A stretch of DNA of 64,000 bases from Spirochaetota bacterium (GTDB lineage Bacteria > Spirochaetota > UBA4802 > JAFGDQ01), in the NCBI GenBank assembly GCA_043803405.1, contig JAZDKB010000015.1, forward strand, positions 174,780 to 238,779, read 5' to 3'. Below are positions 43,901 through 64,000 of this stretch, in pieces. Below the pieces are notes generated by a model. That model worked only from the letters and a program-made list of their open reading frames with translations. It did no database searches and had not been told where the DNA came from. Position numbers and translations under genes: made by a program. Numbering within the stretch: position 1 is the stretch's first letter; the number at the start of each line of letters is the position of its first letter.

Positions 43901-45136
43901 CGATGTCTCTGCAATGTTCGTGGATACAATTATCTTTCTTTTTGATATGGGGCTGAATATCTGTTTCTGCTGGCCGGCAGGCAGTCTTGAATAAAGAGGA
44001 AAAACCGCGAAATTATATTTATTCTTTTTTTGAAGCAGATCACATGTCTCGCGTATGTCCAGCTCCGTCGGCATAAATATGAGTATATCTCCGCCCGACG
44101 GGCATGGATGCCCTAGTGCAGGATGCGGACAGGATGTCCTCTTGTATCCTGCAGACGGGCAGGATGCCCTAGTGTCGAGTACGGTCACGGATGACTGTTT
44201 GTGTTCGACCGACGGGCAGGATGCCCTAGTGTCGGGCACGGTCACGGATGACCGTTTGTGCTCGAAAGACATATCTTCTCTTAATAAAGATAATGCCACG
44301 TCGGCTGCCTGTTCAATATAATCTGCCGGAATATTTTCTGCATCTTCAGCAGCATCGGTATACCGGACTTCAACTGGATACATTTTTCCAGATACTTCAA
44401 TAACAGGAGCATTGTTGAACGCCTTTGAGAACTTGTCCGTATCAATTGTCGCGGATGTTACAATGAGTTTAAGGTCCCTCCGCCTGGCAAGGAGCCTTTT
44501 CAATATTCCCAGTATAAAATCAATATTGATGCTTCTCTCATGCGCCTCGTCTACGATGATGGTATCATAAGCATTCAGGTACGGATCGCCTGCTGTCTCT
44601 GCGAGAAGGATGCCGTCGGTCATTATCTTAATGAATGAATTCTCCCCGGTCTTTTCATCAAAGCGAATTTTGTATCCGACTGAACTTCCGACTTCCTCTC
44701 CGAGTTCTTCCGCGATCCTGTTCGCAATGCTTATCGCGGCTATTCTTCTCGGCTGGGTGCAGCCTATAATGCCGTTTATGCCTCTTCCTGCAGCAAGACA
44801 GAACTTGGGCAGCTGCGTCGTCTTGCCAGATCCGGTCTCGCCGGATATAATTACAATATTATTAGTCCTGATAGCTTCTATTATTTCATCTTTTTTCGCG
44901 GTTATAGGAAGTTCCGGAATATAAGAGAATGCCGGGATGTTTTTTTTACGCCATTCTTTTTTCTGAATAGAAAAACTTATCTTTCTCTTGAGCCTAAGGA
45001 GCTTATTTTTATCTTCAGTTCCGGATTTATTTTTTCTGCTTTTATGAAGCAGACGCTTTAATTCTTTTCTAAAGCCGTACCTGTCCGGGCTCATCACTTG
45101 CGGAAGCAGCAATTCAAGTTGTTTATATGGATCCAT
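40967..45136 (-). CDS. hrpA: ATP-dependent RNA helicase HrpA, carrying a 57-aa repeat-derived insertion
   Basis: GETGSGKTTQ, TQPRR, DEAHER, SAT, TNIAETSLT and QRMGRCGR; long HrpA C-terminus. Confidence 0.93.
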   Translation of the reverse strand: MDPYKQLELLLPQVMSPDRYGFRKELKRLLHKSRKNKSGTEDKNKLLRLKRKISFSIQKKEWRKKNIPAFSYIPELPITAKKDEIIEAIRTNNIVIISGETGSGKTTQLPKFCLAAGRGINGIIGCTQPRRIAAISIANRIAEELGEEVGSSVGYKIRFDEKTGENSFIKIMTDGILLAETAGDPYLNAYDTIIVDEAHERSINIDFILGILKRLLARRRDLKLIVTSATIDTDKFSKAFNNAPVIEVSGKMYPVEVRYTDAAEDAENIPADYIEQAADVALSLLREDMSFEHKRSSVTVPDTRASCPSVEHKQSSVTVLDTRASCPSAGYKRTSCPHPALGHPCPSGGDILIFMPTELDIRETCDLLQKKNKYNFAVFPLYSRLPAGQQKQIFSPISKRKIIVSTNIAETSLTIPNISYVIDTGLARMSEYSPTSGIVSMPIKAISGSSADQRMGRCGRVREGVCIRLYAKEDYEGRDRFTKPEIFRTNLAEVILKMTALRLGDISLFPFIDKPKQQAITDGYNTLIELGAIRKEDNSFSLTDRGRIMAALPVDPRLSRMLIEAGERKCMSEVLAIASMLSVQDPRERPPGKENEADKKHAAFTDRSSDFITLLNIWNKFTDLYNDNASQNKIRKFCRENFISYNRMKDIREIHAQLSGTLEENGLTLKKAVKKKHRFIKEYDLLYNAIHKSILTGFLSNIANKKTNNLFIASKQREVVIFPGSGLFGRAKDWIVCAELVKTSLLFARTAANIKPDWLEELAGDLCEYSYRDPYWDREKGDVYASEQVTLYGLEIIRNRRVLYGRKNPEEACKVFIRDALIEDMFTEIGLDGTAYAGKTAELFQLGREFQFLQHNVELIKNFMRIEKRIRKKILISRDDLYMFYADHIHDAYNIGTLDSLIKKNRNDDFLCMNDEDMLSSLPDYNKLKEYPETISINNITLDLLYKFNPGSEDDGITLIIPVSVLQSININLIESAIPGLYREKITELIKNLPKQYRRYFIPAADSVEKIIREMPKGNPMIASLQKFIYEKYNIEIPNQEWPPEKLPDHLRLKLSIRDKNGIEITSGKDAGNIIRELTEKYKARAFNEIKNKWEKEDIREWDFGDLPEEIKTKNENGLQFVFYPGLRKENGKLSLRIFMDMETAAGSHKEAVAELTAKELSGQLNIIKNELDVPDELKSAVMLFGGLSSIREQYHKRMMSKNFYKDIRSKQDFINNIKMMRESLREHGVHLRLLLIDVLENYTTATDKLGILKLQNKAIKPNLVFLNKIKDELNILVPRDFLLVYDDNELASLGKYIKALAIRAERGCANLQKDIQKEKEILLFKDALDHEYNILTKTTSNEKKKALRTFFWLIEEYKISVFAPEIKSGIKISGKRLEQVLEEIRKMN
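44097..44267 (+). repeat. three tandem 57-bp GGA-hairpin modules inside hrpA
   Basis: Units 44097-44153, 44154-44210 and 44211-44267, each GAC-hairpin-TAGT-bulged hairpin; homologous to modules at 53.7-59.0 kb. Confidence 0.92.
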
Positions 45137-46936: not shown

Positions 46937-47275
46937 ATGGATAAAACTCTTTCAATACAAAGCGGCCTTGGTAAAAGGCTGAACCAGGTAAAAAAGTTCG
47001 AAGAAAGAACGATTATGTTTAAAGGAAAAGAGATACCGCTGGTCAGCAAAATCACGATAGGCAGGGATCCGGATAATAACATAGTACTTAAAGACAAAAT
47101 GGTTTCACGGTATCATGCCGAGATTCAAAAGATAAAACAGGAGATTTTCGTAAGAGACCTGAACAGTTCCAACGGAACTTATGTAAATGACTTCGAAATC
47201 CCGCAGAATAAATACGCAAGGCTTCAGGGAAAAGACAGGATAAGGGTCGGCAAAACAGAATTGATTATAAGATGA
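46937..47275 (+). CDS. FHA-domain protein
   Basis: TIGR....D..VSR.HA...DLNSSNGTYVN. Confidence 0.9.
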   Translation: MDKTLSIQSGLGKRLNQVKKFEERTIMFKGKEIPLVSKITIGRDPDNNIVLKDKMVSRYHAEIQKIKQEIFVRDLNSSNGTYVNDFEIPQNKYARLQGKDRIRVGKTELIIR

Positions 47276-47403
47276 TAAAGGCAACGATGCTTTCCGCTTC
47301 ATTTCCTGGCAATTACCATATGGCTTAAAAGACTTTTATACCTGCATTCGGCACGGTACTGAATAATCCTTTCATACAGTTCAGTCAGTATTTTACTGCC
47401 ACA

Positions 47404-48726: not shown

Positions 48727-48906
48727 CAGTACCTTTTCACGATGTTTATTTTAATTTAAAATAAGCATTATTTAATTAGTTCTTGATGAATAATTCAGTT
48801 TAACACAGCAAAAGCATGGTTTTTCTCCCGCCTGCGGCGGGGGAAAGGGCATTGTTCACCAAAAAACTAATTAAATTTTCTACTTTAAATAATTCATTAT
48901 TAAGAA

Positions 48907-50166
48907 TCAAAAATGATATATTATTAATGGAATTAAAATTGAAGCAACAGGAGCAGAATAATAAAGCCCGCGGTTGTTCTTAAATGATTCACGATTATGA
49001 AAACCAATAATCCCACCTGCTACTCCGCCTGCAATACCACCGATAAGCATATACAGCTTACCTGTGTAGATACGGCCTATTGCAACACTAAAACCTCCTT
49101 CAACACCTGTAAAAGTATTAATTGCTACAGAAGCGCCGATAAGAGCACCTCCAAGAAATCCAATCGCGCCGCCTGTTACAACAGAATTAAAATTTCCCAT
49201 GGGATTATCGGCAGGATTGTCTTTATACCTGCTCTCTCTGAAATAAATCGTTAACCCTGTATAAATAAAAGGAATTGCAAGCAGTAAAGCATGCTCCCTT
49301 GTTGTTTTTAAACGCTCTCCAGTCCTGGCTGAATTGCTTTTACTCTTATACATTGCGATCTGATTGTTATCTTCAGAAGTAAGATTCATTCCATATTTTT
49401 TTATGCAATCAATAACTTCCTCATCTGACTCGTATTTAATGGCATATTGAAGCGGATTTATCCCTTTATCATTATTTATATGAACATCGGCTTTATTCTG
49501 AAGCAATAATTTAATTGCTTCAATATTTTCATAACGTACTGCTTCGTGCAGAGGAGTATATTTGTATTTAGTAGTATAATTGACCCTGGCCCCATTCTGG
49601 ATAAGCAATTTTGCCAGTTCCAGTTTTTCTTTTGAAAGCTTACCCTTATTGAAAATTATATACAGAGGGGTTTCATCCGAGTTATTTGCAGTATCAAAAG
49701 GAGCGCCTTTTTCTATTAAATATTTCGCAATTTCAAGATTGGAGTTCTTAAAAAAGTCTTTGTCAGAAAGGCTGTGAAGAAGAGTATCTCCAAATTTGTT
49801 TTTTATTTTAATATTTGCTCCATGATTATAAAGAAAATCCGTTATTTCATAACTGCTCTGCCCGTTATAAAGATGAATTGCATCATAAAGAGCTGTTTTG
49901 CCATAATAGTCGCGAAGATTTGGATCAGCTCCCTTTGATATAAGATATTTTACAACATGAAATTTGCCAAAAAGAACAGCAGTCTCAAGTAATGTACTTT
50001 CATTATAATTTTTAATATTTACATTCGTTCCTGATTCTATTAAATATTTTATCCTTTCAAGATTGCCATAGGCTGCTTCTTCAAAAATATTTCTTTCTTC
50101 TGCAATAAGACCTGTATTAAACACTATTATAATAACTGTTAAAATTAGATTGTTTTTTAATTTCAA
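48907..50166 (-). CDS. exported ankyrin-repeat protein with C-terminal membrane domain (paralog of 47404-48726)
   Basis: TTG start, ankyrin repeats and shared C-terminal motifs RYKxNPxxNPM and NRGLYYxAP. Confidence 0.85.
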   Translation of the reverse strand: MKLKNNLILTVIIIVFNTGLIAEERNIFEEAAYGNLERIKYLIESGTNVNIKNYNESTLLETAVLFGKFHVVKYLISKGADPNLRDYYGKTALYDAIHLYNGQSSYEITDFLYNHGANIKIKNKFGDTLLHSLSDKDFFKNSNLEIAKYLIEKGAPFDTANNSDETPLYIIFNKGKLSKEKLELAKLLIQNGARVNYTTKYKYTPLHEAVRYENIEAIKLLLQNKADVHINNDKGINPLQYAIKYESDEEVIDCIKKYGMNLTSEDNNQIAMYKSKSNSARTGERLKTTREHALLLAIPFIYTGLTIYFRESRYKDNPADNPMGNFNSVVTGGAIGFLGGALIGASVAINTFTGVEGGFSVAIGRIYTGKLYMLIGGIAGGVAGGIIGFHNRESFKNNRGLYYSAPVASILIPLIIYHF

Positions 50167-50271
50167 TTGTGACCTTTCCTGTTAATGGTTTAAATAATTT
50201 ATGAGCTATGTTTCTTTATAAATTTGAAATGTCTGCCTGCAATCAAATTATCAAGCTGCCGTAAAGTTATT

Positions 50272-50847
50272 TCAGCCTTTTATCTTCTTTAACAAAAAGG
50301 CCATATTTTCTCCCAGTGTTTTCATGTTAAGCATGCCTTCTTCATCTTTATTTACATCCCCTATCTCTTTTCCATAAACCATGTTCCAGTAACTGGCTCC
50401 TACTAAGAACATCTGCATGTAGTGAAGAAAGTGATTCATTGTATCAAAGGCATGGGTGGCTCCGCCTCTTCTTACTGCGACAACTGAACCTCCTACTTTA
50501 TGCTTAAAAATGCCTCCGTTTTTTGCTGAGACCATTCCTGCACGGTCTATCAATGCTTTCATCTCTGCCGTGACATCTGTAAAGTATGTGGGAGATCCTA
50601 AAATTATTCCGTCTGCTTCGACCATTTTATCAATACAATCATTAATACCGTCGTCATCTAAAACACAGTGCTTGTCCAGATTTTTCGCGCATGCCATGCA
50701 GGCTGTGCATCCCCTGACCGGCTTTGCTGCTATATTAATTATCTCGGTTTTAATGTTCTCTTTTTCCAGTTCACGGAAGACTGCTTTTATCAGCAATGAG
50801 GTATTGCCTTCTTTATGTGGACTGCCATTAATTCCTATAACTTTCAT
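50272..50847 (-). CDS. iron-sulfur flavoprotein / NADPH-dependent FMN reductase family
   Basis: GSPHKEGNT, CTACMAC.....C, GSPTYF and RRGG. Confidence 0.9.
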   Translation of the reverse strand: MKVIGINGSPHKEGNTSLLIKAVFRELEKENIKTEIINIAAKPVRGCTACMACAKNLDKHCVLDDDGINDCIDKMVEADGIILGSPTYFTDVTAEMKALIDRAGMVSAKNGGIFKHKVGGSVVAVRRGGATHAFDTMNHFLHYMQMFLVGASYWNMVYGKEIGDVNKDEEGMLNMKTLGENMAFLLKKIKG

Positions 50848-51258
50848 TTTATTTCTCCTTAAGTTATTAAGATTTTACAAAAAAGCCGGATGGATTACGA
50901 GCGCTGGTACTGACATTCTAAATCTAATCTCCTCTCTGCTTCTCAAACTTCCATTACTCAATCAGTGTGAACCAAAATCCTTACTTATTTTGTTACGTAG
51001 CGTAATAATATTAATGATAGTTTATAAAGATTCATTATATTTGTCTTCCTAAATGAAGAGATGTCTGCAAATAGGAATGCCTGCTGAACTGTAGGTACTG
51101 GCAGCGATATTTAAATTATTATCGGCTTCGATCTACACACGATTCTCTTCAACAAAACCGACATTAGAAATATAGTTATGCAATGCTTGTCAGAAAAACT
51201 CGATATATGGTTTTTACATAATTACTTTTAAACAGATATCTAATAAAATATTATTAAT

Positions 51259-51771
51259 TTAATCATCAACATCATGAAATAAATACCATTCATCTTCAAT
51301 GTGTCTAAGTGCACTATATGTTAAAAACTTACCTGATTTTCTCTTAGCTTTATAATATACATCTAAATTCTCTACAATAGCAAAATCCTTGGAAATTAGA
51401 GACTTATTTTTATAATAGGCGTATCCTTTTTCTTGACCACTTACACTAATACCTTGTGTATTATAAGTGAAATCAATATTATCTTTTTGAGATGAGCGGT
51501 AGAAACTTTTTATCCCTATTTTTTTTAAAATTATACGATATTCAATTAGTCTTTCTTTTTTAAGAATATAATCATCCGGGTCAATGAAATCTAATGCAAG
51601 TCTTCTAAGTTGTGTTTCTTGTTTTATCATTTTTACAAGCTTCTCAAAGTCGCTTTTATTTACTCTAAAATGATCAATCATAGAATTATCATCTGGAGTT
51701 TTTGAGCAGCTAAATAAAATCAAAATTAGCGGAATAAATAATAATAATTTTCTCAATATATTTAGCATCAT
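51259..51771 (-). CDS. hypothetical lipoprotein
   Basis: Lipobox LFSC; AT-rich ORF. Confidence 0.6.
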   Translation of the reverse strand: MMLNILRKLLLFIPLILILFSCSKTPDDNSMIDHFRVNKSDFEKLVKMIKQETQLRRLALDFIDPDDYILKKERLIEYRIILKKIGIKSFYRSSQKDNIDFTYNTQGISVSGQEKGYAYYKNKSLISKDFAIVENLDVYYKAKRKSGKFLTYSALRHIEDEWYLFHDVDD

Positions 51772-51997
51772 TAACTCTCTAAAGGGCGGCTCACTACATA
51801 CATTATTTTTATGTTGAGACTGTTGAAAAATCAAATTTTTTGAAAATTTGAAAAATTCGATTTCGATTACAGGCGATTATAAGCAATGATAGCAAAATAC
51901 GATTAACGAAAATTTTTAAAATTCAAAAAGCTACTATTTTTCAATGATCTCGTTAGAAATAATAAATTTAAACTAACTAAATCAATAATTCTTAATT

Positions 51998-53083
51998 TTA
52001 TAAATACTGTTTATTTATCATTTTCTCTGGTTCTAAACATAGTAAATATAAAATTATTAAAAACATAAATTCTATGGGTTTCATTAAGATATATATTAAA
52101 TCTGCTTTGAATGGTGTATTAATTTTTTTTGATAACGGATAACCATATTTGTCATAATTCTTACGAATCCATCTATGTACTTTTGGGAAATGATCACTTA
52201 TTAATTCTTCAAATGCATTTGCTATTAATAATTGTCTGTTTACAATAATTGTACTGCCTTTACGGGTTCCGAGTCGAAGTGGTTTAACAATTTTATTATG
52301 CCCGCTTGCTGCCACTGTACAGAGATAATGGCCATGATGCTCCAAATATGGAGGATGACTGTACTGCGAAAATTTCCAGGTTGTTGTTTCTGTAAAAACT
52401 TTTACTATTGAATCATGATCTTGCCCTATAAGAAGCAAAAGCATTGTCATTATCAAATATACAGGAATCAACAGCAGAATTACCCATACTGCAAGATTTT
52501 TTGATGAAGCTAATTTTTCGTTAATTAAGTTAAGTATTTTGTTATTAAATTGTCTGTTTTCAGAACATTTTGCTTCTTCAAAAATAACCTTTAATATAAG
52601 AAGAATCACGATAATTATTGTCATCACAGGAGCTAACATAAGAAAAATATTGTCACTACCTCCTACATTAAAATTTTCATTATCATGATTATATGAAAAC
52701 TGAAATATAACAGGAATACAGATGAAGGCTTCAATAAGCATCATCACAATACATGATACCAGAAAAAGAGGCGGCAATTTTCTCCCTTTAGTCCATATTT
52801 GAAAAGATGATATAGAACCCAATATAAAATAAGTGAGTAAAGTCAGCCAGTGTTTGTCCGCAAATGGACTATATGATTCGTCAACTGGATCAATAGCTTC
52901 CTGATATGAAGTATAACCTTTTAATAAAAAGGAAATAACAAATATCGCAAGAGAGGATAAATATAAAAAAAAGATAATATATTCGAAAATAAATTTTACT
53001 TTTCCAATAGAAGATCTGCTATATTTTAATATTAAAAAAGAAAGTATTAAGATACTTATAAATATATACACTAGAATTGGCAT
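51998..53083 (-). CDS. DUF6688-like membrane protein
   Basis: Several TM segments, then GHYLCTVAA.GH..VKP.R.G.R...VNRQL..ANAFE; family recalled from memory. Confidence 0.7.
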   Translation of the reverse strand: MPILVYIFISILILSFLILKYSRSSIGKVKFIFEYIIFFLYLSSLAIFVISFLLKGYTSYQEAIDPVDESYSPFADKHWLTLLTYFILGSISSFQIWTKGRKLPPLFLVSCIVMMLIEAFICIPVIFQFSYNHDNENFNVGGSDNIFLMLAPVMTIIIVILLILKVIFEEAKCSENRQFNNKILNLINEKLASSKNLAVWVILLLIPVYLIMTMLLLLIGQDHDSIVKVFTETTTWKFSQYSHPPYLEHHGHYLCTVAASGHNKIVKPLRLGTRKGSTIIVNRQLLIANAFEELISDHFPKVHRWIRKNYDKYGYPLSKKINTPFKADLIYILMKPIEFMFLIILYLLCLEPEKMINKQYL

Positions 53084-53196
53084 AAGTAGTATTCAGATAA
53101 AATTAAAAAATTTTGCAATTAATTTCTAACTAGTTAATTTAATTTGTTTAGATAATAATTTTAAATTATTATTATGTCTATTATTTTTTTATTAAT

Positions 53197-53442
53197 TTAA
53201 TCTGTAAGAAATGTGAACCGTAGGTTATAATGATTTAAATGATTGGAAAGGATTTTGGCACGGATGTCCATTTGTGCCTGACGCCATCCTTTCCATCCGC
53301 GGTTCAGACAACCAACAACGTGGGTGCTGTTATCAATTTTTTTATTAGGCTTATCAAGGCTGGTAAGAAGCTTATCTATCAAATCTGCTTTTTCTACAGG
53401 TTTCAGAGAAAGCGTGTCTTTGAGTAAATTATCCGTAAGCAT
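53197..53442 (-). pseudogene. truncated addiction-module antitoxin, no partner toxin
   Basis: The first ~37 aa (LSLKPVEKADLIDKLLTSLD) resemble 56685-56882; the expected W..E..R tail is replaced by unrelated sequence. Confidence 0.55.
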
Positions 53443-53564
53443 TGCTTTATCCTCTATCCGTTCTAAATAATTTTATTGATGATATTATTTATTATGAAAA
53501 TTGATTTTGTCAAGTTGTTTAGTTGAATGACATTATGAGATTATTTAATAATTGTATAACACCA

Positions 53565-53880
53565 CGCCCTTGCTCCTTCCATCGCCTTTCTGTTCCCGTT
53601 TACCGTTGCATTCGCCCTTGCTCCTTCCACGCGATTCATTTTACTCTGCGCATCTGCTAACGTGCAACCCGCGGCCGGCCAAAACGCGACAAGCATGGAT
53701 GCTTTAGTGCAGAGCGCAGGCAGGAGGCCTGTTTGCGCTCTGCCGACGTCCTGTCGCTTGGCCGGCATTAGGACATCCTGTCCGTCAAGCTCCGCTTGCT
53801 GACCTTTCGGCCTCCTGCCTCGGTCTGCATTCCTTACCTCCTGTAATTCGCGGAGAGGGGGGCGGATAGAGAGAAGTGTG
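53565..53880. repeat. intergenic repeat A, copy 1 (nested modules 53673-53786 plus extra 52-bp insert 53800-53851)
   Basis: Near-identical to 54456-54785, 57738-57996 and 58739-59062. Confidence 0.92.
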
Positions 53881-53923
53881 TGGGTAAAGTTTTTTTGCCT
53901 GTCAGGTGTTTGAAGATTTTTAT

Positions 53924-54151
53924 CTATGATTCAAATTCAGATCGCGGCAGGCCCGGCTGTCTAATTATAGACATCAGTGTTCCAATACGGATTTCTTTAT
54001 GATTAGGGACGGGTATAGTTATTGTAGAATCTGTTATTCTCTTTTGCATAAGAACATGGCTGCCGTGTGTTCTAATATAAACAAATCCATGTTTTTGCAG
54101 TATGCCGCAAACTTCCTTTCCTGAAAAAATTTTTAATTTACCCAACAGCAA
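53924..54151 (-). CDS. hicA: HicA-family toxin
   Basis: SGKEV..IL.K.GF...R..GSH...VPNHKEI..GTL.SI; start codon uncertain. Confidence 0.88.
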   Translation of the reverse strand: MLLGKLKIFSGKEVCGILQKHGFVYIRTHGSHVLMQKRITDSTITIPVPNHKEIRIGTLMSIIRQPGLPRSEFES

Positions 54152-54359
54152 CCTCTAACTGTGTTATGTAAATTTCTTCATGTAATCGTGTTTTAATTTC
54201 ATCAGGTGATGCGGCTTCAAAAAATAGTTCTAATGCTTCTTTTAAGTTATTTCTGGCTTCATCTACTGTATCTCCCTGGCTTGCTATATCTAACTCCGGG
54301 CACAGGGCAACGTAGCCGTTATCTTCTTTTTCAATAATTGCTGTAAGTTTTTTATTCAT
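54138..54359 (-). CDS. hicB: HicB-family antitoxin
   Basis: AIIEKE..GYVALCPEL..SQGDT.DEA..NLKEALEL. Confidence 0.9.
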   Translation of the reverse strand: MNKKLTAIIEKEDNGYVALCPELDIASQGDTVDEARNNLKEALELFFEAASPDEIKTRLHEEIYITQLEVAVG

Positions 54360-54455
54360 AGTATTCTTGCTCTTATGTTTATTTTTAACTTAACTATTAT
54401 TTACAGTTTGATAAATAGCAACAAATTTATTTAATAATTATTAACAACCACTCTT

Positions 54456-54785
54456 CCGCCCCTGCTGCTAACTCTGCCTTTTACGCGCCCGAAGCGTTTC
54501 TGCCCGCGAGCACCCCAACGCCCTTGCTCCGTTCGCTGCCTTTCTGATCCCGTTCATCGTTGCATTCGCCCTTGCTGCTTCCACGCGATTCGTAACACCT
54601 GGCGCATCTGCTAACGTGCATCCCGCGGCCGGCCAAAACGCGACAAGCATGGATGCTTTAGTGCAGAGCGCAGGCAGGAGGCCTGTTTGCGCTCTGCCGA
54701 CGTCCTGTCGCTTGGCCGGCATTAGGACACCCTGTCAGTCAAGCCCTGCTTGCGGAGAAGGGGGGCGGATAAAGAAAAGTGTGTG
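54456..54785. repeat. intergenic repeat A, copy 2 (nested modules 54627-54740)
   Basis: Direct alignment with the other A copies. Confidence 0.92.
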
Positions 54786-54898
54786 ATGTGTTCTTGTTTA
54801 CAGCACTGAATGTTTTATCCTTAGAGATGAAAGTTTCAAATAACATGTCTTTAATAAATTATAGATCTGCATGTTTTAATTCCTGATTGAATGAATTA

Positions 54899-56014
54899 TT
54901 ATACCGTCCATTCAAATAGCTTTTCAAAAAATTTTGTTGTTCTGTAAAAATGATTTCTGCTAAATATTTCGCGGCCTTCAGTTTTTTTCTCTACTAACCC
55001 GAAATACAAAGCAAAATTATTCAAAAACAGATAGGAAAAACCTGACTCAACAATTGATTGTTTATCTTCTTCATCAGATAATTCGTGAAGTATATACGGG
55101 AAAGCCAGGCCATATGCCTGAGCAAGCTCGACACCTGTTATAAACCCGGCAGCTTTTTTTCTGATCAGATGCAGATTGAAAACATATGATTGCTGCATAA
55201 ATCCGAAAGATTCCGGATATCTTGTGAGATAAAGCCAATTATATGAAGTTGCATAATAATGAAAAAGCATTTTATAGTTTTCATATATGTTGCTGTTTTT
55301 ATAGAGTTTTAAACCCTTTGCAGTAATTGTAAAAATATTGTGCTTTTTTTTCATTAGGCCTGAATTAGTAAAGAAAAAACGCATGGCCTCAATTTCTTTA
55401 ACCTCTGCTTCCATGCGGGGATTGATTTCATAAATCGAATCGTCTTTTATGAACTTTTTGTAGAATTCCTGAACGAGCTTTTGCGGGAAATTCCCTTTTT
55501 GTGTTGCTTTTATACCTTTTTCGCTTTCGGCCAGAGCATTAATAATATATTCAAACTGCCTGTATACCGGAGTTTCTTTTATGAGGTTTTCTTCTATTTC
55601 ATCCCTGAAATGGACAATCGGATTTTCCGAAAAATTATTTCGCAACACTGAACGCATTTGAGTAGAAGACAAACCGAGAAAATCGTCCTGAATTTTGCTG
55701 TTTGCGGCATTCATTTCTTTTTCCATAAATGCCTGCGCTTCATTTATATCATTGAATTCATGCTTCTCCATTTCATTTTTCATTTTATTAAGAACTTCCG
55801 TTGAGGGATTAGGCATGCCAAGGCTTTCCATTAAAGTTGGCACAGGACCGTTTCGCGTATCCCATTTAGCTACAAGTTCACCGTAATGCTCTATGCTATT
55901 TTCAATGCTTTTCTGCGCTGGAAAAGGAATGATATTATCATTCTTCAGACAGCAATGCTTGTACTTCTTCCCACTGCCGCACGGACATGGTTCATTTCTT
56001 CCGACTTTATTCAT
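54899..56014 (-). CDS. SEC-C motif protein
   Basis: N-terminal VGRNEPCPCGSGKKYKHCC; the remainder is uncharacterised. Confidence 0.8.
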   Translation of the reverse strand: MNKVGRNEPCPCGSGKKYKHCCLKNDNIIPFPAQKSIENSIEHYGELVAKWDTRNGPVPTLMESLGMPNPSTEVLNKMKNEMEKHEFNDINEAQAFMEKEMNAANSKIQDDFLGLSSTQMRSVLRNNFSENPIVHFRDEIEENLIKETPVYRQFEYIINALAESEKGIKATQKGNFPQKLVQEFYKKFIKDDSIYEINPRMEAEVKEIEAMRFFFTNSGLMKKKHNIFTITAKGLKLYKNSNIYENYKMLFHYYATSYNWLYLTRYPESFGFMQQSYVFNLHLIRKKAAGFITGVELAQAYGLAFPYILHELSDEEDKQSIVESGFSYLFLNNFALYFGLVEKKTEGREIFSRNHFYRTTKFFEKLFEWTV

Positions 56015-56177
56015 TAATGTTTTTCCAGAAATATTTAATAAGTTTTTGTATATTTACTTTTATTTTAAGACAATAATTAATTAAATAATATCAAGCGATT
56101 ATTATCCGGCTAGTGATTATAGACCTGTTTTTAACAAAATTATTACAGGTTATTCAGCCTTCTGTTTCACTACGCCA

Positions 56178-56369
56178 TTGCATTCGCCCCTGCTGCTTCC
56201 CTTGCCTCTCTGTTCATACCGGATGCTTGTCTGCAAATAACGGGAGCGACGGGCATGGATGCCCTAGTGTCGGACACGGACAGGAGGTCCGTTTGTGTCC
56301 GACCTACGTACGCGGTTCAATAACCCGGAGCGGTATCTACTCACGGAGCGGGGAGGGGCGGAGTGCGTA
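56178..56369. repeat. intergenic repeat B, copy 1 (57-bp module at 56248-56304)
   Basis: Aligns with 57512-57680 and 56957-57035; shares the CGCCCCTGCTGCTTCC start with repeat A segments. Confidence 0.9.
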
Positions 56370-56397
56370 TAGGGGGATTAGGTTACAACGAATGTCA

Positions 56398-56688
56398 TTA
56401 TTTCCTAGACTGCCAATACCATGGCTTTCTATGCATATGAGCTATTGCCCAGATTGTTACCATGTCTTTATCTATTGAAAACAATATTTTATATGGAAAT
56501 TTTGGAATGTATGCTTTATAAATATTATCTGCTTCTATTAAAAACCAATTGGGGTTTTTGATAATTTTTTTTATTTGAGTAATAACAGCTTTTTTAAATC
56601 TTTTTCCTAATCCTTCTGATTGATTTTCATACCAATCAATAGCATCATTAAATTCCTTGTTTGCTAGTTCATCTATACTAATCTTCAT
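56398..56688 (-). CDS. RelE/ParE-family toxin
   Basis: A..E...AI.WYE....LG.RF...KFPY.I......AIAH..RKP.YW. Confidence 0.88.
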   Translation of the reverse strand: MKISIDELANKEFNDAIDWYENQSEGLGKRFKKAVITQIKKIIKNPNWFLIEADNIYKAYIPKFPYKILFSIDKDMVTIWAIAHMHRKPWYWQSRK

Positions 56689-56882
56689 AAATATAGTTTT
56701 TCAAAATCAAGCAGCTTAGCTTTCCCTTCATTAACTGCTTTCATCCGTGATTTAACTTCAATAAGCCATGATTTGCGTATTTCTTCTTCTTCATGATCTA
56801 TGCTGGCAAGAATTAATTCTGCAAAGATCACTCGTTCATTTGGCGGCATTTCCAATGCTTTATCTAAAAGTCCTTTATCCAT
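56685..56882 (-). CDS. addiction-module antitoxin
   Basis: AL.MP..ER...AE..LAS.D......W..EV..R; GAGGAG RBS; 4-bp overlap with the toxin. Confidence 0.85.
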   Translation of the reverse strand: MDKGLLDKALEMPPNERVIFAELILASIDHEEEEIRKSWLIEVKSRMKAVNEGKAKLLDFEKLYL

Positions 56883-56956
56883 AATTATTTCTCCTCGTAT
56901 ATACTTTATATGTTACTCGGAACTTAAATTGCAACAAATTTTCTTTATTAAAATTG

Positions 56957-57100
56957 AATAACGGGAGCTACGTACGCGGTTCAATAACCCGGTGCGGTAT
57001 CTTCTCACAAAGCGGGGAGTGGCGTGGTGCGTAAAGATAGATTGGACGTAATTTATTAATTATTTGCTAAAACAATTTTCCCGTGCCTCTGCTGCTCCCC
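56957..57100. repeat. intergenic repeat B, copy 2 (partial, lacks the 57-bp module)
   Basis: AATAACGGGAGC|TACGTACGCGGTTCAATAACCCGG; 3' extension shared with 57680-57745. Confidence 0.85.
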
Positions 57101-57228
57101 CAATTAAACAAAATTATAACCGAACAATCATTTTTATTTCAGCTATTTTTAGCTGCATAACTTGGAAATTAACTAACACTTTAAATATAAATGAAAAATT
57201 GATCCAGATACTTTGATGTTAATTATCT

Positions 57229-57387
57229 CTAATCATTATCTTTAGGACATCCAAGAATGATGAGTTCTCCTGATGGAGTCTTAGTTACCAATCTCTGTTC
57301 ATTATAAATGGCATAATGGCAAAAAACATATCCATACTGATAGGATACATAAAGATTACACTTTTTACAATCTTCTAATAATTTCAT
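57229..57387 (-). CDS. 52-aa Cys-rich small protein (putative metal-binding)
   Basis: Manual translation: MKLLEDCKKCNLYVSYQYGYVFCHYAIYNEQRLVTKTPSGELIILGCPKDND*; same strand as the neighbouring cassettes. Confidence 0.5.
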   Translation of the reverse strand: MKLLEDCKKCNLYVSYQYGYVFCHYAIYNEQRLVTKTPSGELIILGCPKDND

Positions 57388-57511
57388 GATAGATCTTTCT
57401 TTTGAGTGTTTTTATTTTTTATAAGAGCATATTAACTAAAAGAAGCAATCTATATTTAATAAAAAGCAAGCAAATACATATGAAAATATTCCATAGCTTT
57501 TGCTTAAACCA

Positions 57512-57737
57512 CGCCCCTGCTGCTTCCTTAGCCTCTCTGCGCATACCGAACGCTTGTCTGCAAATAACGGGAGCGACGGGCACGGATGCCCTAGTGTCGG
57601 ACACGGACAGGAGGTCCGTTTGTGTCCGACCTACGCACACGCTTCAATAACCCGGAGCGGTATCTTCTCACGGAGCGGGGTACGTAAAGAGAGATTTGAT
57701 CTAATTTATTAATTATTTGCTAAAACAATTCTCCCAA
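57512..57737. repeat. intergenic repeat B, copy 3 (57-bp module at 57575-57631)
   Basis: Aligns with 56185-56355. Confidence 0.9.
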
Positions 57738-57996
57738 CGCCCCTGCTCCTTTTGCCGCCTTTCTGCTCCCGTTCGCCGTTGCATTCGCCCTTGCTGTTTC
57801 CGCGCGATTCATAACACTTGGCACATCTGCTAACGTGCATCCCGCGGCCGGCCAAAACGCGACAAGCATGGATGCTTTAGTGCAGAGCGCAGGCAGGAGG
57901 CCTGTTTGCGCTCTGCCGACGTCCTGTCGCATAGCCGGCATTAGGACATCCTGTCCGTCAAGCTCCGCTTGCGGAGAGGGGGAGGGTGGATAGAGA
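57738..57996. repeat. intergenic repeat A, copy 3 (nested modules 57846-57959)
   Basis: Direct alignment with the other A copies. Confidence 0.92.
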
Positions 57997-58022
57997 AAAC
58001 AATATAGAAGTAATTGAAAGTT

Positions 58023-58364
58023 TTATTTGGTAATTCCGATAAGAGACTCAACAACTTTTCTTAATTCGGGTATATGGAGTTTAATGGTTTCACTGATTAT
58101 TTTAATATCAATATCTTCGTAGCCATGAACTATTCTATTGCGGAGGCCGATAATTTTGGAACTTGGCAATTCATTTAAAATATTTGTATTTTCAATTTTA
58201 TTAACTGCTTCACCGATCTGAGTGATACACATCATTATTGCATATTCGCCCTCAATATCAGAAAGAGTCTTCTCAATTGTGCCATGTTTTTCAACAATAA
58301 TGTTAATATCACTGATATATTTTAATATCAATTCCAATTTGGCAAGATCGCTTCTTTTAAACAT
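58023..58364 (-). CDS. HepT-like (DUF86/HEPN) RNase toxin
   Basis: QIGEA and the RNRIVHGY (RX4HXY) motif. Confidence 0.88.
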   Translation of the reverse strand: MFKRSDLAKLELILKYISDINIIVEKHGTIEKTLSDIEGEYAIMMCITQIGEAVNKIENTNILNELPSSKIIGLRNRIVHGYEDIDIKIISETIKLHIPELRKVVESLIGITK

Positions 58365-58665
58365 ACATAACTTCCGGGAGAATATATTTCTTGCCTATCT
58401 CATTTAATGCATTTTTATTCGCCAGATCAATTTCCATTCCGAGCTCTTTTTTAAATTCTTTTTCTATCTGCTCAATTACCGGTATTACATCCCAACCCGG
58501 ATATTTTTTATAAAAGCTGTCAGTCATTTCATACAATATATCAATATCGCTATTTTCGGTTTCTTCTCCGCGTACGTATGAGCCGAAGACACCAAGGATT
58601 ATAAAACCCTCAGGTTCGTATTTGCTCTTTAAATTTTTTATTTTATTTATTACTGTAGTATTCAT
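58357..58665 (-). CDS. MntA-like minimal nucleotidyltransferase antitoxin
   Basis: VFGSYVRGE....SDIDIL; overlaps the HEPN gene. Confidence 0.88.
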   Translation of the reverse strand: MNTTVINKIKNLKSKYEPEGFIILGVFGSYVRGEETENSDIDILYEMTDSFYKKYPGWDVIPVIEQIEKEFKKELGMEIDLANKNALNEIGKKYILPEVMYV

Positions 58666-58738
58666 ATTTTAAACTTAATTTATTCAATTTACATGTACTA
58701 ATACTTAAAAATAATTTTTGTCAAGTTGTTTAATCATA

Positions 58739-59062
58739 CCGCCCCTGCTGCTAACTATACCTTTTGCGCGCTCCGAAGCGTTTCTGCCCGCGAGCACCCC
58801 AACGCCATTGCTCCTTTCGCCGCCTTTCTGTTCCCGTTTGCCGTTGCATTCGCCCTTGCTGCTTCCATGCGATTCATAACACCTGGCGCATCTACTAACG
58901 TGCATCCCGCGGCCGGCCAAAACGCGACAAGCACGGATGCTTTAGTGCAGAGCGCAGGCAGGAGGCCTGTTTGCGCTCTGCCGACGTCCTGTCGCTTGGC
59001 CGGCATTAGGACGTCCTGTCCGTCAAGCTCCGCTTGCGGGGAAGGGGGCGGATAGAGAGAAG
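58739..59062. repeat. intergenic repeat A, copy 4 (nested modules 58911-59024)
   Basis: Direct alignment with the other A copies; ends 7 bp from the hsdR stop. Confidence 0.92.
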
Positions 59063-59068
59063 AATGCT

Positions 59069-62000
59069 TTATGGGACTTCCGTCAGTTCATCTGCTATCA
59101 GCTCAGCCTGTTTTAGAACTGTTTCTGTTGCAAGCTTCTGCATATCCGGCGGATAGCCGTACTGGCGCAGTATGCGTTTAACTATGACTTTTAGTTTTGC
59201 TTTTACGCTTTCTTTAATTGTCCAGTCAATGGAAGCATTCTCTTTTACTTTCTGAAAAAGGACAACAGCAAGCTCCCTTAGCTTATCCTGCTCCATTACT
59301 TTTCTTGCGCTTTCATTGTTTGCAATAGCAGTATAAAACGCATATTCCTGCTCGGACAAATTCATTTCTTCAGCTGCTTTGTCCATGCTCTTTATTTCTT
59401 TTGAAAGTTCTATGAGTTCTTCTATTACTTCTGCAGCAGTAAGAATTTTATTGTGGTATTTCTTAATGGAATTTTCCAGCATTTCCATGAGCGTCTTGCC
59501 CTGAACAAGGTTTTTCTTAACTCTGGATTTAATTTCATCATCAAGCAGTTTCCTCAGGGTTTCAAGAGCGATGTTCTTATGCTCCATGTTCTTGACTTCG
59601 AGCAAAAACTCTTCAGAAAGAATTGAAATGTCGGGTTTCTTAATACCTGCTGCATCGAATACATCTATGACTTTTTCTGTAACAAGGGCTTTGTCAATTA
59701 CCTGATGAATTGCTGTCTCGATTTCATCGTCGGTAAAACCGGAACCGGTGCTGTCGAACTTGGCGAGTCTTGATTTCACTGCCTGGAAAAAGGCTACTTC
59801 GTCTTTAACATCCATTGCCTGTTCATGCGGGATTGCAATAGCAAATGCTCTGGATAGCGCTGTCACTTGATCTATGTATCTCTTCCTGCCGTCATCTATT
59901 GTGAGTATATGCTCTTCAGCAGAAAGAATAAGCGAGAGCTTCCTTCCTGTTTCAGCTTCAAAATAGTCCTCGTAAGCAAATCCATGAAACATCTGGGAAA
60001 CGACTTCAAGCTTTTCAAGCATAAGCTGTACTGCCTGTTCCTGTGCAACGGCCGGGTCGCCTTTGCCGCCGGAGTTGGAATAGAAAGAAAGAGCTTCTTT
60101 AAGGTCGGATGCTATTCCAAGATAATCTACTATTAGGCCGCCTTCTTTATCCTTGTACACACGGTTAACGCGAGCAATTGCCTGCATCAGGTTATGGCCT
60201 TTCATGGGCTTATCAATGTATAGAGTATGGAGCGATGGAACATCGAAACCAGTCAGCCACATATCGCATACAACCACTATCTTTAAATCATCTTCGGGAT
60301 CTTTCATGCGATCTGCTAGAGTTCTGCGCTGATCTTTAGTGGTGTGATGCCTGGAGATTTCAGGACCGTCGGATGAAGCTGAGGTCATTACTACTTTTAT
60401 TGTGCCTTTGCTGAGTTCTTTGTTGTGCCATTCTGGTCTTAATTTAATTATTTCATCATATAGTTTAGCAGCTATACGACGTGACATGGTTACTATCATT
60501 GCCTTGCCGTCTATAACTTCCTGACGAAGTTCAAAATGAGTAACAATATCTTTTGCTATTTTTTTAATGCGATCTTCGCTGCCAACAAGGGCTTCAAGCT
60601 GTGTCCATTTCGCTTTTTCTTTTTGCGTTACGCTTAGTTCATCTCCCAGCTCATCATCGAGTTCCTTAACCAGTTCTTTTCCTTTATCACTGAGATTAAT
60701 CTTTGCAAGCCTGCTTTCGTAATAGATGCGAACAGTTGCGCCGTCCTCTACTGACTGAGCAATATCGTAAACATCAACATAGTTGCCGAATACTGCCGGT
60801 GTATTAATATCTGTCTTTTCTATTGGTGTGCCGGTAAATCCCAGGTACGTTGCATTGGGCAATGCGTCGCGCATATACTTTGCAAAACCATAGACGATTT
60901 TTTTTCCTATAACATTTCTGTTTTCATCTTTAACATCAATATGTTTTGCGCTAAATCCGTATTGCGTTCTATGCGCTTCGTCTGCAATAACAATGATGTT
61001 TCTGCGGTCAGACATCTTTTCAAAAACATTGCCTTCTTCCGGCTGGAACTTTTGAATAGTGGTAAACACAACTCCGCCGGATGCAACCTTCAGGAGTTCT
61101 TTCAGGTGATCTCTATTTTCTGCTTGAACGGGCTCTTGCCTTAACAGCTGTTTCGATGCTGCAAACGTATCGAATAACTGATCGTCCAGATCATTGCGGT
61201 CTGTAATTACAACGATTGTGGGATTATCCATTACGAGAACAATTTTACCGGTGTAGAAAACCATTGAGAGCGACTTGCCGCTCCCCTGCGTGTGCCAGAC
61301 TACGCCGCCTTTTTTATCGCCAACAGGTTGCGAGTAAACGCCGGGAACTCCGTAGCTTTTCGGGTCTTGTGCTACCATGAAGGTGGGATTATCTTTCTTT
61401 GTGTTTGCAACATATCCCGACGCCCTGAGCGTTGATTCTACTGCACGGTTTACTGCGTAATACTGATGATATCCTGCTAATTTCTTTTCTATTTGAATAA
61501 ATGTCTGTCTGGTTACTTTATCTTCCTTTTTCGATTCTTCGAATACTATGAAATGGCGGATCAGATCAAGTAGCGTTTTCTTTGTCAGCATTCCTTTTAT
61601 CAGAGTTTCCAGCTGGCCTATAAGAGTTGAGGCTTCTGTTTTTCCGTCTGAGGTTTTCCATGCCATGAATCTGCTTAAACCTGAGGAGATTGTGCCTGCT
61701 TTTGCTTCTAACCCGTCGGAAATTATCAGAAAGCCATTGTACGTAAAAAGAGTCGGTATTGCCTGTTTATATGTCTGGAGCTGCTTAAAGGCGGAATGTA
61801 CTGTGGCGTTTTCATCAGCGGGATTTTTTAGTTCTATCACGACAAGGGGCAATCCATTTATATACAGGATTACATCCGGTCGTTTGTTAACGTGGTTTTC
61901 AATTACTGTTAACTGGTTAAGTACAGTAAAGTCATTGTTTTCCGGGTCGTTAAAATCTACAAGCCAGACAAGATCGCCGCGGCTGTTGCCGCCTTTCTGG

Positions 62001-62302
62001 TATGTTACATTGATTCCCTCGGTCAGCATTCTATGAAAGGTTTCGTTATTATTAATGAGTTCAGGTGAATTGATGCGTTGTAATTGTTTTATGGCGTCGT
62101 CACGGATATCTGCAGGGATTTTAGGATTGATTCTGGCAATGGCTCTTTTGAGTTTATCGGGCAATAGAACTTCTTCAAAGGATTTGCGGGCAGGGGTTTC
62201 GCTGTCTGGGGCAATATCCGGGCCGTATATGTAACTGTAGCCTTGTTTTTCAAGGAGGGCAATGGAGTATTGTTCGATGGAGGATTCGGTGATTTTATGC
62301 AT
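59069..62302 (-). CDS. hsdR: type I restriction endonuclease subunit R
   Basis: PD...INGLPLVVIELK nuclease motif, HTQGSGKS, DEAHR, FTGTP, LTGFD and QAIARVNR. Confidence 0.95.
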   Translation of the reverse strand: MHKITESSIEQYSIALLEKQGYSYIYGPDIAPDSETPARKSFEEVLLPDKLKRAIARINPKIPADIRDDAIKQLQRINSPELINNNETFHRMLTEGINVTYQKGGNSRGDLVWLVDFNDPENNDFTVLNQLTVIENHVNKRPDVILYINGLPLVVIELKNPADENATVHSAFKQLQTYKQAIPTLFTYNGFLIISDGLEAKAGTISSGLSRFMAWKTSDGKTEASTLIGQLETLIKGMLTKKTLLDLIRHFIVFEESKKEDKVTRQTFIQIEKKLAGYHQYYAVNRAVESTLRASGYVANTKKDNPTFMVAQDPKSYGVPGVYSQPVGDKKGGVVWHTQGSGKSLSMVFYTGKIVLVMDNPTIVVITDRNDLDDQLFDTFAASKQLLRQEPVQAENRDHLKELLKVASGGVVFTTIQKFQPEEGNVFEKMSDRRNIIVIADEAHRTQYGFSAKHIDVKDENRNVIGKKIVYGFAKYMRDALPNATYLGFTGTPIEKTDINTPAVFGNYVDVYDIAQSVEDGATVRIYYESRLAKINLSDKGKELVKELDDELGDELSVTQKEKAKWTQLEALVGSEDRIKKIAKDIVTHFELRQEVIDGKAMIVTMSRRIAAKLYDEIIKLRPEWHNKELSKGTIKVVMTSASSDGPEISRHHTTKDQRRTLADRMKDPEDDLKIVVVCDMWLTGFDVPSLHTLYIDKPMKGHNLMQAIARVNRVYKDKEGGLIVDYLGIASDLKEALSFYSNSGGKGDPAVAQEQAVQLMLEKLEVVSQMFHGFAYEDYFEAETGRKLSLILSAEEHILTIDDGRKRYIDQVTALSRAFAIAIPHEQAMDVKDEVAFFQAVKSRLAKFDSTGSGFTDDEIETAIHQVIDKALVTEKVIDVFDAAGIKKPDISILSEEFLLEVKNMEHKNIALETLRKLLDDEIKSRVKKNLVQGKTLMEMLENSIKKYHNKILTAAEVIEELIELSKEIKSMDKAAEEMNLSEQEYAFYTAIANNESARKVMEQDKLRELAVVLFQKVKENASIDWTIKESVKAKLKVIVKRILRQYGYPPDMQKLATETVLKQAELIADELTEVP

Positions 62303-62303
62303 G

Positions 62304-63862
62304 TTAATTGCTTGTTATTAACTTCTCAACAATTTGAAATATTGGCTCAAAATATCTAAAATCACTTTTTATAAAGTTACTTGTTGAATTTGCAAAAGCT
62401 GATTTTTTTTCATCCTTGATTTTTATTATTCTTCCACCACCAGGAATTTCAATTTCTTCAGTAAAACCATGTAGTTTAGAATCATCAAACAGTAATTCTA
62501 TACATAATCTAGATGCTTTCCCATAAGATTGTTTAGCATAGTCAGTCCGGTGTGCAGGGACTGGCAGTAAGAAAACATAACCTTTATGTTTTTTATGTTT
62601 TGCTAGAAGACCTTTTTGCGAATCATTTTCAATTTGCTCCCAGACTTTATCGTTATTATTTTTCTGTTCTAGTAATTTATTCCAATTTTCAAATGCTTCA
62701 TCAAAATCTAGCATACCTAAAAATATATTGTTTCTATTATTTCTAAAAATGTCGCCTCTTAGAAAAGTATTTCCTATGAAAGATCTATCAAATGCTTGTT
62801 GAATTTTAAATGGAATTTTACTGCCATTTTTCAATTTATTCCAAGCGTTTTCCAAAATTATCTTATCTGTTGGTCCTTCAATAAATAATACCGGTTTAGT
62901 TTCATTCTTTAAGTCATTTATCGTCTCTAATAATAAAGAATTTTCTTCTAATTTTTCTTTAATATAAGGTGAAATTATATGTAAGAGTCCCATGTCTTTA
63001 TCAATATTTTTTATTTCATTCGGATCAATTTTAGTAAATTCCGTAATACTATTATCTACATTTTTTAAGGTATTATACATTATGGTTTCTTTCTGATTTT
63101 TCCCTATTGTATAAAAAGCAGGTGAATGTGTAGTAAGAAAAATTTGTATGTAATCTGAATAGTTTTCAAAATTTTTTGCCAATTCGAATGCTTGGAACAT
63201 TTCCAAATTATTTTCAGGTTCTTCGTAACCCCAAATAGTATCACTTCTCACAGCACCTTTCGCGTGGTGAATCCGTTCTTTTTCAGCCAAAAATTTCAAT
63301 ATTACAGGAACATGTCTTACTTTTATTCCATCGCCTCTATGTTTTAAAGAAATAGTCCGTCCTGTTATCTGGGTCTCAAAATCAAGAATTGAGAATATAG
63401 TCGAAAGATCTTCTGGTAACTGAATTTTACTTTCAAACGAAAGTTTTTCTAATAATTCTCTCGATAAAAGATCTGTGTGGTGTCTAATTTCATTAACAAA
63501 ATTAGTACCTGCTGTTTGCAAGTCAGACTTTAATACTGAATATAATGTCTCGTATAATTTTTTTAAAAGTTCACTAAAGTAATCATTTCCTTTAATCGCT
63601 GGAACATAATGGAATTGAAGCCTTTTTAACCATAGTTTAACTCTTGATCTATCAGTTATTGCAGAACCATTTGCATATTTAGTTACTTCACTATACAATC
63701 CGATTTCACGCCACTTTTTAATCCATATTATTTTTTTTGAATGTCCTTTAAATGTATCCGGTGGAGTAAGGAAAATACGAATTTCAATCTCTTTTGCTTT
63801 ATGTTTCTTGGTAACTGTAAATTTTGAATAATCTGTTTCAAAATTATATTTTTGTCCTAAAT
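62304..63862 (-). pseudogene. ABC/AAA ATPase-TOPRIM (OLD-like) gene, 5' end cut off by IS256 insertion
   Basis: RGDG, YEEPENNL, LTTHSP, TOPRIM FIEGPTD and LDFD. The frame stays open past 63698 (LGQKYNFETDYSKF...) up to the IS end, with no Walker A inside the window. Confidence 0.75.
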
Positions 63863-64000
63863 GAGAGTGTAAAAAAGATTGTGTAAACAGCCATAGAATA
63901 AATAATTGAAGACAGAGGAGAAGAAAATGGCTGAAGGAAAAGAAATAGTAGAAGAACTGTTAAAGCAGATAGATTTTAAGAATTTAACAGTAAATCAGAT
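63863..64000 (+). mobile_element. IS256-family element, left end
   Basis: GAGAGTGTAAAAAAGATTGTGTAAACAG resembles IS256-family terminal IRs, followed by an RBS and transposase start. Confidence 0.75.
63927..64000 (+). CDS. IS256-family transposase N-terminus (partial)
   Basis: GAGGAG RBS; MAEGKEIVEELLKQIDFKNLTVNQ. Confidence 0.65.
   Translation, partial: MAEGKEIVEELLKQIDFKNLTVNQ

Follow-up and report, generated by a model that had tools for sequence, protein, structure and literature searches.

Two Rfam families of paired hairpins with GGA in their loops stand close to the element considered here, a twin-hairpin DNA unit of 57 or 58 nucleotides (nt) that recurs among toxin-antitoxin cassettes in a 64,000-nt stretch of a Spirochaetota genome (GenBank assembly GCA_043803405.1, contig JAZDKB010000015.1, positions 174,780 to 238,779). 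This whole stretch is called the window, and positions are counted from its first letter; the genome under study is G000, its contigs bear C numbers, and the other genomes compared bear other G numbers. Bacillaceae-1 (RF01690, taken as its reverse complement) has, like the unit, two A(N)GGA-loop hairpins separated by about 27 nt, with a long bulged stem beneath the second, and the unit also has the RUCCU-type loops (GGA on the other strand) that are a criterion of that family; it differs in being described as a non-coding RNA. TwoAYGGAY (RF01731) shares the twin AYGGAY loops, a variable copy number and an association with arrays of repetitive extragenic palindromes (REPs), but it has a common basal stem, which the 57-nt unit lacks and which two further families of G000, X and Z, possess. 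Both motifs are listed in PMC2864571, and both were proposed as sponges for CsrA in the RMfam paper (PMC4333381). A bioRxiv preprint (10.64898/2026.09.22.753630) extends TwoAYGGAY, repeats the sponge idea and suggests a mobile-like expansion, which it calls unresolved.

Sponge small RNAs of the CsrB/RsmZ type likewise present A(N)GGAX loops on C-G closing pairs. Such a sponge is one transcription unit that has its own promoter and terminator and presents many loops, all on the same strand, whereas the unit has two loops, random orientation and insertion junctions. A different likeness is to the ends of IS200/IS605 elements and to REPs with their REP-associated tyrosine transposases (RAYTs), described in PMC6006769 as having two subterminal hairpins, a flanking target tetranucleotide, a terminal tetranucleotide, no target duplication and a preference for the lagging-strand template. 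In contrast to these, the unit has no transposase gene between its hairpins, no autonomous partner has come to light (see below), and its target is loosely conserved. CGTC-tagged REPs (PMC3733652) are also small palindromes with a terminal tag, some of them intragenic and with no dedicated transposase known, but they are single hairpins with stems of 8-9 bp and a CCA tail, and GGATG is absent from the main text of that paper.

Judged by the Rfam models, the copies in the window fall short of both families. A scan of positions 43000-60000 brings nothing to cut-off. With RF01690 the best window copy scores 19.9 bits against a cut-off of 35, and two of the 14 matches in the genome pass, both outside the window; an uninterrupted copy of one subtype (the outer units introduced below), at C9:161019, scores 36.7 bits and so exceeds the cut-off. 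RF01731 (cut-off 43 bits) has no match in the window, and one of its three matches in the genome passes, a copy of family X at 52.9 bits. As other copies in the genome reach the cut-offs and those in the window do not, the unit resembles both families without being filed there. For the junctions, empty sites, replichore bias and csrA-less carriers reported below, a limited literature search found no published account in this hairpin class.

The modules at this locus are larger intergenic repeats that have been precisely invaded by the 57/58-nt two-hairpin unit, which is sometimes nested in a copy of itself. Between 53.5 and 59.1 kb, four A repeats and three B repeats are interspersed with small genes, all on the - strand. 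The repeats and the units that they hold are as follows.

53535..59065, no strand: carrier repeats A1-A4 (family D1, 276 nt, 82-94% identity) and B1-B3, GC-rich and intergenic, separating small gene cassettes
53673..53787, - strand: A1 outer 58-nt unit, with TGAC start and TAAT linker, split by the inner unit
53687..53743, + strand: A1 inner 57-nt unit, with CGAC start and loops CATGGATG and CAGGAGG; 76.3 bits
53798..53849 (ends approximate), - strand: extra insert of about 52 nt found in A1 only, lodged in a carrier hairpin's loop and bearing two CAGGAGG loops
54627..54741, - strand: A2 outer unit, split; first loop decayed to CAGGGTG
54641..54697, + strand: A2 inner 57-nt unit
56247..56303, + strand: B1 57-nt unit, between GGGAG and CTAC, target duplication absent
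56958..57060, no strand: B2, an empty B carrier, insertion site between 56967 and 56968
57574..57630, + strand: B3 57-nt unit, at a site identical to that of B1
57846..57960, - strand: A3 outer unit, split; the 19.9-bit match to RF01690 (cut-off 35)
57860..57916, + strand: A3 inner 57-nt unit
58911..59025, - strand: A4 outer unit, split
58925..58981, + strand: A4 inner 57-nt unit
44096..44266, + strand: three tandem 57-nt units, in frame in hrpA (40967-45136, - strand) and antisense to its mRNA

The clearest evidence of insertion comes from sites that are filled in one copy and empty in another. B2 equals B1 or B3 minus the 57 nt, with no duplication at the site (56967/56968). Seven B carriers exist in the genome: three are filled at this site, three are empty (those outside the window being one on C19 and one on C21, with one other carrier filled), and the seventh ends short of the site and has a truncated unit elsewhere. 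Within each of A1-A4 a - strand unit is split by one on the + strand, and relatives of the outer unit occur uninterrupted at C9:161016, C15:42810 and C36:1928. Three relatives, G001, G005 and G006, have nothing at the hrpA insertion site, and a fourth, G002, has a different insert there, itself nested. Units are also found inside a RAYT-like gene that is frameshifted and inside an RHS-like gene, and in relatives they often lie within other GC-rich or REP-like repeats. The genes neighbouring units in five spirochaete relatives are miscellaneous, as judged from 106 of the 164 open reading frames (ORFs) collected.

The RAYT-like and RHS-like genes have features of their own in G000. The RAYT-like gene (L003:940-1830, on C18) is frameshifted near its start, GTAG-tagged palindromes flank and interrupt it, and its 57-nt unit is in frame. 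The RHS-like gene (L021, C10:138104-138210) has two different twin-GGA inserts six bases apart, and a paralogue at C10:142625 reads through without inserts.

Every unit follows one layout: NGAC, a 3-bp stem with loop 1, a 4-nt linker, a 9-bp stem, a 3-4-bp stem with loop 2, a bulge of 3-4 nt and a closing stem. A parser that demanded the NGAC start, linker, stems and C-G closure, leaving GGA free, found 17 units, in which 34 of 34 loops match CA(N)GGANG. In an alignment of 30 units, several of them close kin and three, of the 58-nt subtype, misregistered, 90.9% of 503 cells are paired and 15 of the 17 pairs vary on both sides; none of 500 shuffles reaches the covariation score, and controls slid out of register pair at 32-40%. 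The stems are 94% Watson-Crick (1,245 Watson-Crick, 32 GU, 19 AC and 24 other), and length is held at 56-58 nt in 83 of 86 matches to the covariance model. With that model G000 has 27 matches, and 30 of 151 genomes from the phylum have at least one. An exact pattern search of 185,579 species matched 54 loci; those with the full structure belong to Bacillaceae, spirochaete metagenome-assembled genomes and Gammaproteobacteria, the Bacilli loci having the Bacillaceae-1 layout, and some half-dozen fall in coding DNA by chance. Metagenome contigs gave eight matches, viral contigs and plasmids none.

Families X and Z are twin-hairpin repeats of related build. X has 23 strong copies in G000 (for example C3:114662-114786 and C41:955-1090), in which the twin GGA hairpins are enclosed by AT-rich inverted arms, near-perfect and about 25-35 bp long, which vary between copies; Z has three copies of the same build. 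At the Colwellia-type loci L048, L082 and L298 the unit is near contig ends, and at L298 it adjoins what looks like the 3' end of 23S rRNA, with the GGA strand antisense to it.

A preliminary description of the window had noticed that the module loops match the CsrA/RsmA-binding consensus, and the sequence facts it gave hold throughout. On the + strand, CATGGATG loops are at 53694, 54648, 56254 and 57867, CACGGATG loops at 57581 (B3) and 58932 (A4), and CAGGAGG loops at 53721, 54675, 56281, 57608, 57894 and 58959. The - strand has CAGGATG at 53780 and 57953, CAGGACG at 53753, 54707, 57926, 58991 and 59018, and two further CAGGAGG loops at 53817 and 53843. The copy-to-copy changes it listed (CATGG to CACGG in A4 and B3, CAGGAT to CAGGAC in A4) are present, as is the GGA lost in A2, where the - strand loop now reads CAGGGTG. 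The TCACGGATGA site that it placed in hrpA units 2 and 3 is found at 44185 and 44242 (+ strand, antisense to hrpA) and occurs once more at 56750 on the - strand, within an antitoxin gene. Altogether 21 CA(N)GGANG hairpins (stem at least 3 bp) occur in 1,735 nt of modules, where 300 Markov resamplings give a mean of 0.16 and a maximum of 3. Across the genome, GGA ranks first of the 64 loop cores in hairpin fraction (173 of 4,309, the median core being at 1.9%), and twin hairpins number 35 for GGA and at most five for any other core. The module loops are distributed 12 to the + and 9 to the - strand, and as the five loop types are split over opposite strands, no single RNA carries them all. B1 and B3 have no loop on the gene (-) strand, and B2 has no unit whatever.

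The junctions have a direction. Read on the strand that lacks GGA, the nine window units are directly preceded by GTCG in five cases, GTAG in two and GTCT in two, and they end in GTCG in eight cases and in GTCT in one; no target duplication is consistent at unit junctions. This is the junction topology of IS200/IS605, which insert into the lagging-strand template (PMC6006769). A replichore bias was predicted from the junctions, after strand switches had been seen in the match lists and before skew was measured from 40 stretches of 20 kb. By hand count over five long chromosomes, 66 of 81 listed copies have the non-GGA strand as the G-rich strand, that is, the lagging-strand template (17/17 in G255, 21/30 in G342, 11/13 in G256, 8/10 in G325 and 9/11 in G026). 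The lists are the best 37 of 54, 15 of 24, 10 of 30 and 11 of 17 copies in G342, G256, G325 and G026 and 17 of 17 in G255; the count leaves aside copies close to skew switches (six in G342, two in G256) and a further one located on another contig, takes the last 0.6 Mb of G325 to have the same skew, and includes two G026 copies within a mixed-skew stretch. Genes run against the replichore at three sites where the unit went with the replichore; there was no counterexample.

Because of the junction pattern together with the replication bias, we lean on balance towards a single-strand mechanism, in which the unit is a non-autonomous transposon moved in trans by an HUH enzyme of the IS200/IS605 or RAYT-like kind and would bind CsrA incidentally at most. 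The insertion is seen directly in the empty and filled sites, while the enzyme class and the working strand are what we infer from junctions and bias. The working strand would be the non-GGA strand, mostly the lagging-strand template, with GTCG, GTAG or GTCT as the target directly 5' of the unit, the unit itself terminating in GTCG. The loops would be retained mainly because the mobilising protein reads them, and binding of CsrA to transcribed copies would be a side effect rather than a host switch for toxin-antitoxin cassettes.

Several observations weigh against this trans-mobilised transposon. As to the enzyme, a non-exhaustive search brought up neither an autonomous element, in which the unit's ends would flank a Y1 transposase, nor a partner enzyme; the RAYT-like gene of the genome has a frameshift and is itself host to a unit; an IS91-type transposase gave no match, in a search that matched in no control genome either; and just one of the 106 neighbouring ORFs is a Y1 transposase, 250 nt off and with ends not common to the unit. 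As to the target, only 12 strict parses out of 31 have CGAC after the unit, and host repeats of the GGAGAGG type adjoin many copies. The replichore bias itself may stem from host repeats or, in Bacilli, from GGA being avoided in transcripts. The Bacillaceae-1 relative, and not the exact unit, is what four of the five chromosomes carry, Bacilli genes also follow the replichore, and in G000, where skew is weak, the Y copies split 17:9 and family X 13:10. GU exceeds AC on the GGA strand by 32 to 19, a tally from an alignment fitted to the model, which slightly favours the GGA strand as the folded one. Lastly, loop variation in spirochaetes hits positions that RsmE ignores, and GGA is better kept in company with csrA. 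An IS200-like tnpA fragment occurs elsewhere in the genome (L002:1310-2420, on C7), flanked by GATAG-tagged palindromes and a 21-nt tandem repeat. The DUF559 genes and the IS110 genes have no adjoining unit. Two DNA read sets of low depth yielded short pieces and, in one contig, a 30-letter joint, to which no weight was given.

The better keeping of GGA alongside csrA agrees with an account that we regard as unlikely yet the strongest of the alternatives. In it the unit is mobile, and what preserves its loops is the binding of CsrA to the GGA strand, whether in RNA or in an intermediate of transposition; this would aid its survival or spread, and dispersed copies would titrate some CsrA as a by-product. 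The ingredients exist: csrA and fliW, whose presence in the genome the preliminary description had wished to see confirmed, are adjacent on C18. The window loops, of 5 and 6 nt, satisfy the RsmE/CsrA rule of an A(N)GGAX loop on a C-G pair, which admits both lengths (PMC4005645), and leptospiral CsrA binds a GGA loop in vitro (PMC8668096). The full agreement of the 34 loops parsed with GGA left free speaks for selection by CsrA, as does the presence of csrA in 15 of 15 carrier genomes from three phyla. As to the suggested co-occurrence of module and csrA, in a sample of 121 Bacilli csrA is present in 27 of 29 Bacillaceae-1 carriers versus 48 of 92 non-carriers (Fisher p 5e-5, with kin that are not independent), whereas within the phylum co-occurrence is uninformative, since 148 of 151 genomes have csrA. 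G029 has units and flagellins but no match to csrA or fliW, probably owing to an assembly gap.

Genomes that lack csrA serve as natural controls. Three of them, G279, G329 and G334, with no match to csrA, fliW or flhA, carry 5, 20 and 69 Bacillaceae-1-type copies, the latter two numbers counting against retention by CsrA; however, the host repeats in which these copies lie may have carried them along as they spread, so that the argument has its limits. Loop 1 keeps AGGA in 32 of 33 copies from csrA-bearing genomes and in 25 of 34 from csrA-less ones, and both loops keep GGA in 13 of 33 (five genomes) versus 2 of 34 (three genomes). These tallies rest on fetched top-scoring copies cleaned by hand, with three spurious parses dropped and the shifted loop of L253 re-read; two AGGA loops with a closing pair other than C-G and one loop-1 TAGGATG were counted as GGA. 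Loop 2 is without GGA in 17 of 17 fetched G334 copies, but also in 19 of 33 copies from csrA-bearing relatives, so the invariant core is CA-N-GA-N-G and its first G is free in that lineage. A separate idea, that loops decay once csrA is lost (1 of 8 intact in G279), was weakened by the same controls, which often lack the loop 2 GGA too. Against retention by CsrA stand also the absence of a sense bias and the predicted slipping of CAGGAGG out of register (see below). GGA is somewhat better kept where csrA exists, so CsrA may bind incidentally.

Rather less probable is movement through an RNA copy by reverse transcription, or by an RNA-guided recombinase of the IS110 type, in place of an HUH enzyme. 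The absence of terminal inverted repeats and of a consistent duplication would also suit IS110-type insertion, the genome has three IS110 matches, and units often lie within REP-like repeats. However, no unit lies beside any of the three IS110 genes, the replichore bias and near-perfect Watson-Crick stems suit single-stranded DNA, and neither a poly-A tail nor variable 5' truncation is seen, the length being as constant as stated above.

The preliminary description had taken each module to be a ready-made bivalent CsrA site and proposed that the modules may form a dispersed CsrA sponge, or a portable operator tying toxin-antitoxin cassettes to the Csr state. The first part stands insofar as the loops fit the binding rule and csrA is present, but the GGA pairs are mobile inserts with empty sites. 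The second part, taken as an arrangement that the host maintains, we consider very improbable. It could draw on the presence of csrA-fliW, on the four ParE toxins among the 106 neighbours in relatives, and on the outer units of A1-A4, which place GGA loops on the gene strand 51-192 nt past upstream stops, so that read-through 3' untranslated regions could carry them. Yet a CsrA operator has GGA at or near the ribosome-binding site, and the sense-strand loops of the window are 311-539 nt from the next start codon, while B1, B3 and all inner units are antisense to genes. B2 is without a unit, as are B carriers next to toxin-antitoxin genes on C19 and C21, the inner insert breaks the sense-strand outer units, and the A/B module array is not conserved in 60 relatives. 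Orientation of the GGA strand is random with respect to genes: five relatives have 66 units, 57 of them with calls for both neighbouring genes, and of these 21 are sense, 19 antisense, 14 between convergent and 3 between divergent genes. Predicted folds of whole modules bury most loops, with a closing-pair probability of at most 0.5 for all 12 + strand loops and above 0.9 in only two of the nine gene-strand unit loops; the loop register is backed by covariation, and for CAGGAGG, the second loop of the window's units, a slipped register with the first G paired is predicted (closing-pair probability 0.00-0.01). Promoter-like consensus sites number 21 compared with 18.1 in shuffles, which is background. 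Neither a sponge nor coupling to the cassettes is borne out, given the random orientation, the loops predicted to be buried, the copies in csrA-less genomes, distances of more than 300 nt to start codons and a B2 without a unit. A sponge or operator role at this locus is unsupported, and the toxin-antitoxin island appears ordinary, with repeats that have accumulated among its cassettes and nothing to indicate control by Csr. When a separate GGA-rich sponge was sought, stacked units were the only candidates; one hairpin, at C18:138271, was set aside as it lies in apparent coding sequence.

That the A/B carriers are degenerate integron attC sites, and the array a detached cassette array later invaded by units, is scarcely tenable: toxin-antitoxin cassettes do alternate with repeats, the genome has an integron integrase and RYYYAAC-like boxes follow some stops, but no attC-like palindrome was found in 46000-64000 (by a scan without a positive control, which found none beside the integrase either), empty B carriers fold weakly as DNA (-8 to -9 kcal/mol) and the GTT box is not conserved in the C21 copies.

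The locus is useful for the evidence it gives that hairpins of this class are minimal mobile DNA, with a single-strand mechanism that can be put to the test. More widely, we suggest tentatively, as a possibility less probable than the mechanism itself, that the Bacillaceae-1/TwoAYGGAY class comprises minimal (57-nt) single-strand transposons found across phyla, which insert into the lagging-strand template and parasitise other repeats, and whose opposite strand is a bivalent CsrA site, better kept with csrA, that may act as a mobile seed for Csr sponges. The two twin-GGA-loop families have been candidate CsrA sponges since the RMfam paper (PMC4333381), so that idea is not new; what the present analysis adds is the junction rule, the replichore bias and the comparison with csrA loss. 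The link between mobility and regulation, which the 2026 preprint (10.64898/2026.09.22.753630) calls unresolved, becomes testable with short oligonucleotides, since the unit is defined at 57 nt, its sites are known exactly in both empty and filled form, its cut site and working strand are predicted, and natural losses of csrA serve as controls.

The cassettes between the repeats, and the gene that follows, are these.

53924..54359, - strand: HicB-HicA toxin-antitoxin pair (PF07927; HicB-like matches under cut-off)
54899..56014, - strand: SEC-C motif protein
56398..56882, - strand: addiction-module antitoxin and ParE toxin; a copy on C19, with B carriers, is 92% identical
58023..58665, - strand: MNT-HepT pair
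59069..62302, - strand: type I restriction subunit HsdR, its stop 51 nt ahead of the first A4 sense-strand loop

The carrier sub-blocks end in GCAGCARGGGCG on the - strand. A second antitoxin/ParE array with B carriers, at C19:70840-72500, is 92% identical to window positions 56364-56975, and one of its B carriers has a unit deleted between its two loops. At window positions 53197-53442 is a damaged antitoxin-like ORF; the sequence upstream of it shares 87% identity with the region upstream of an intact copy on C19. An integron integrase lies in the region of C9:269679-270623 / 277583-279034, with no attC by a simple scan; the ORF that follows it has a start that resembles that of a group II intron reverse transcriptase. 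Elsewhere in the genome (C21:12200-24100, C18:125200-127400 and C6:68100-69500), purine-skewed intergenic repeat families of about 250 nt end in a GCAGCAGGGGCG-like block, and these too often adjoin toxin-antitoxin pairs.

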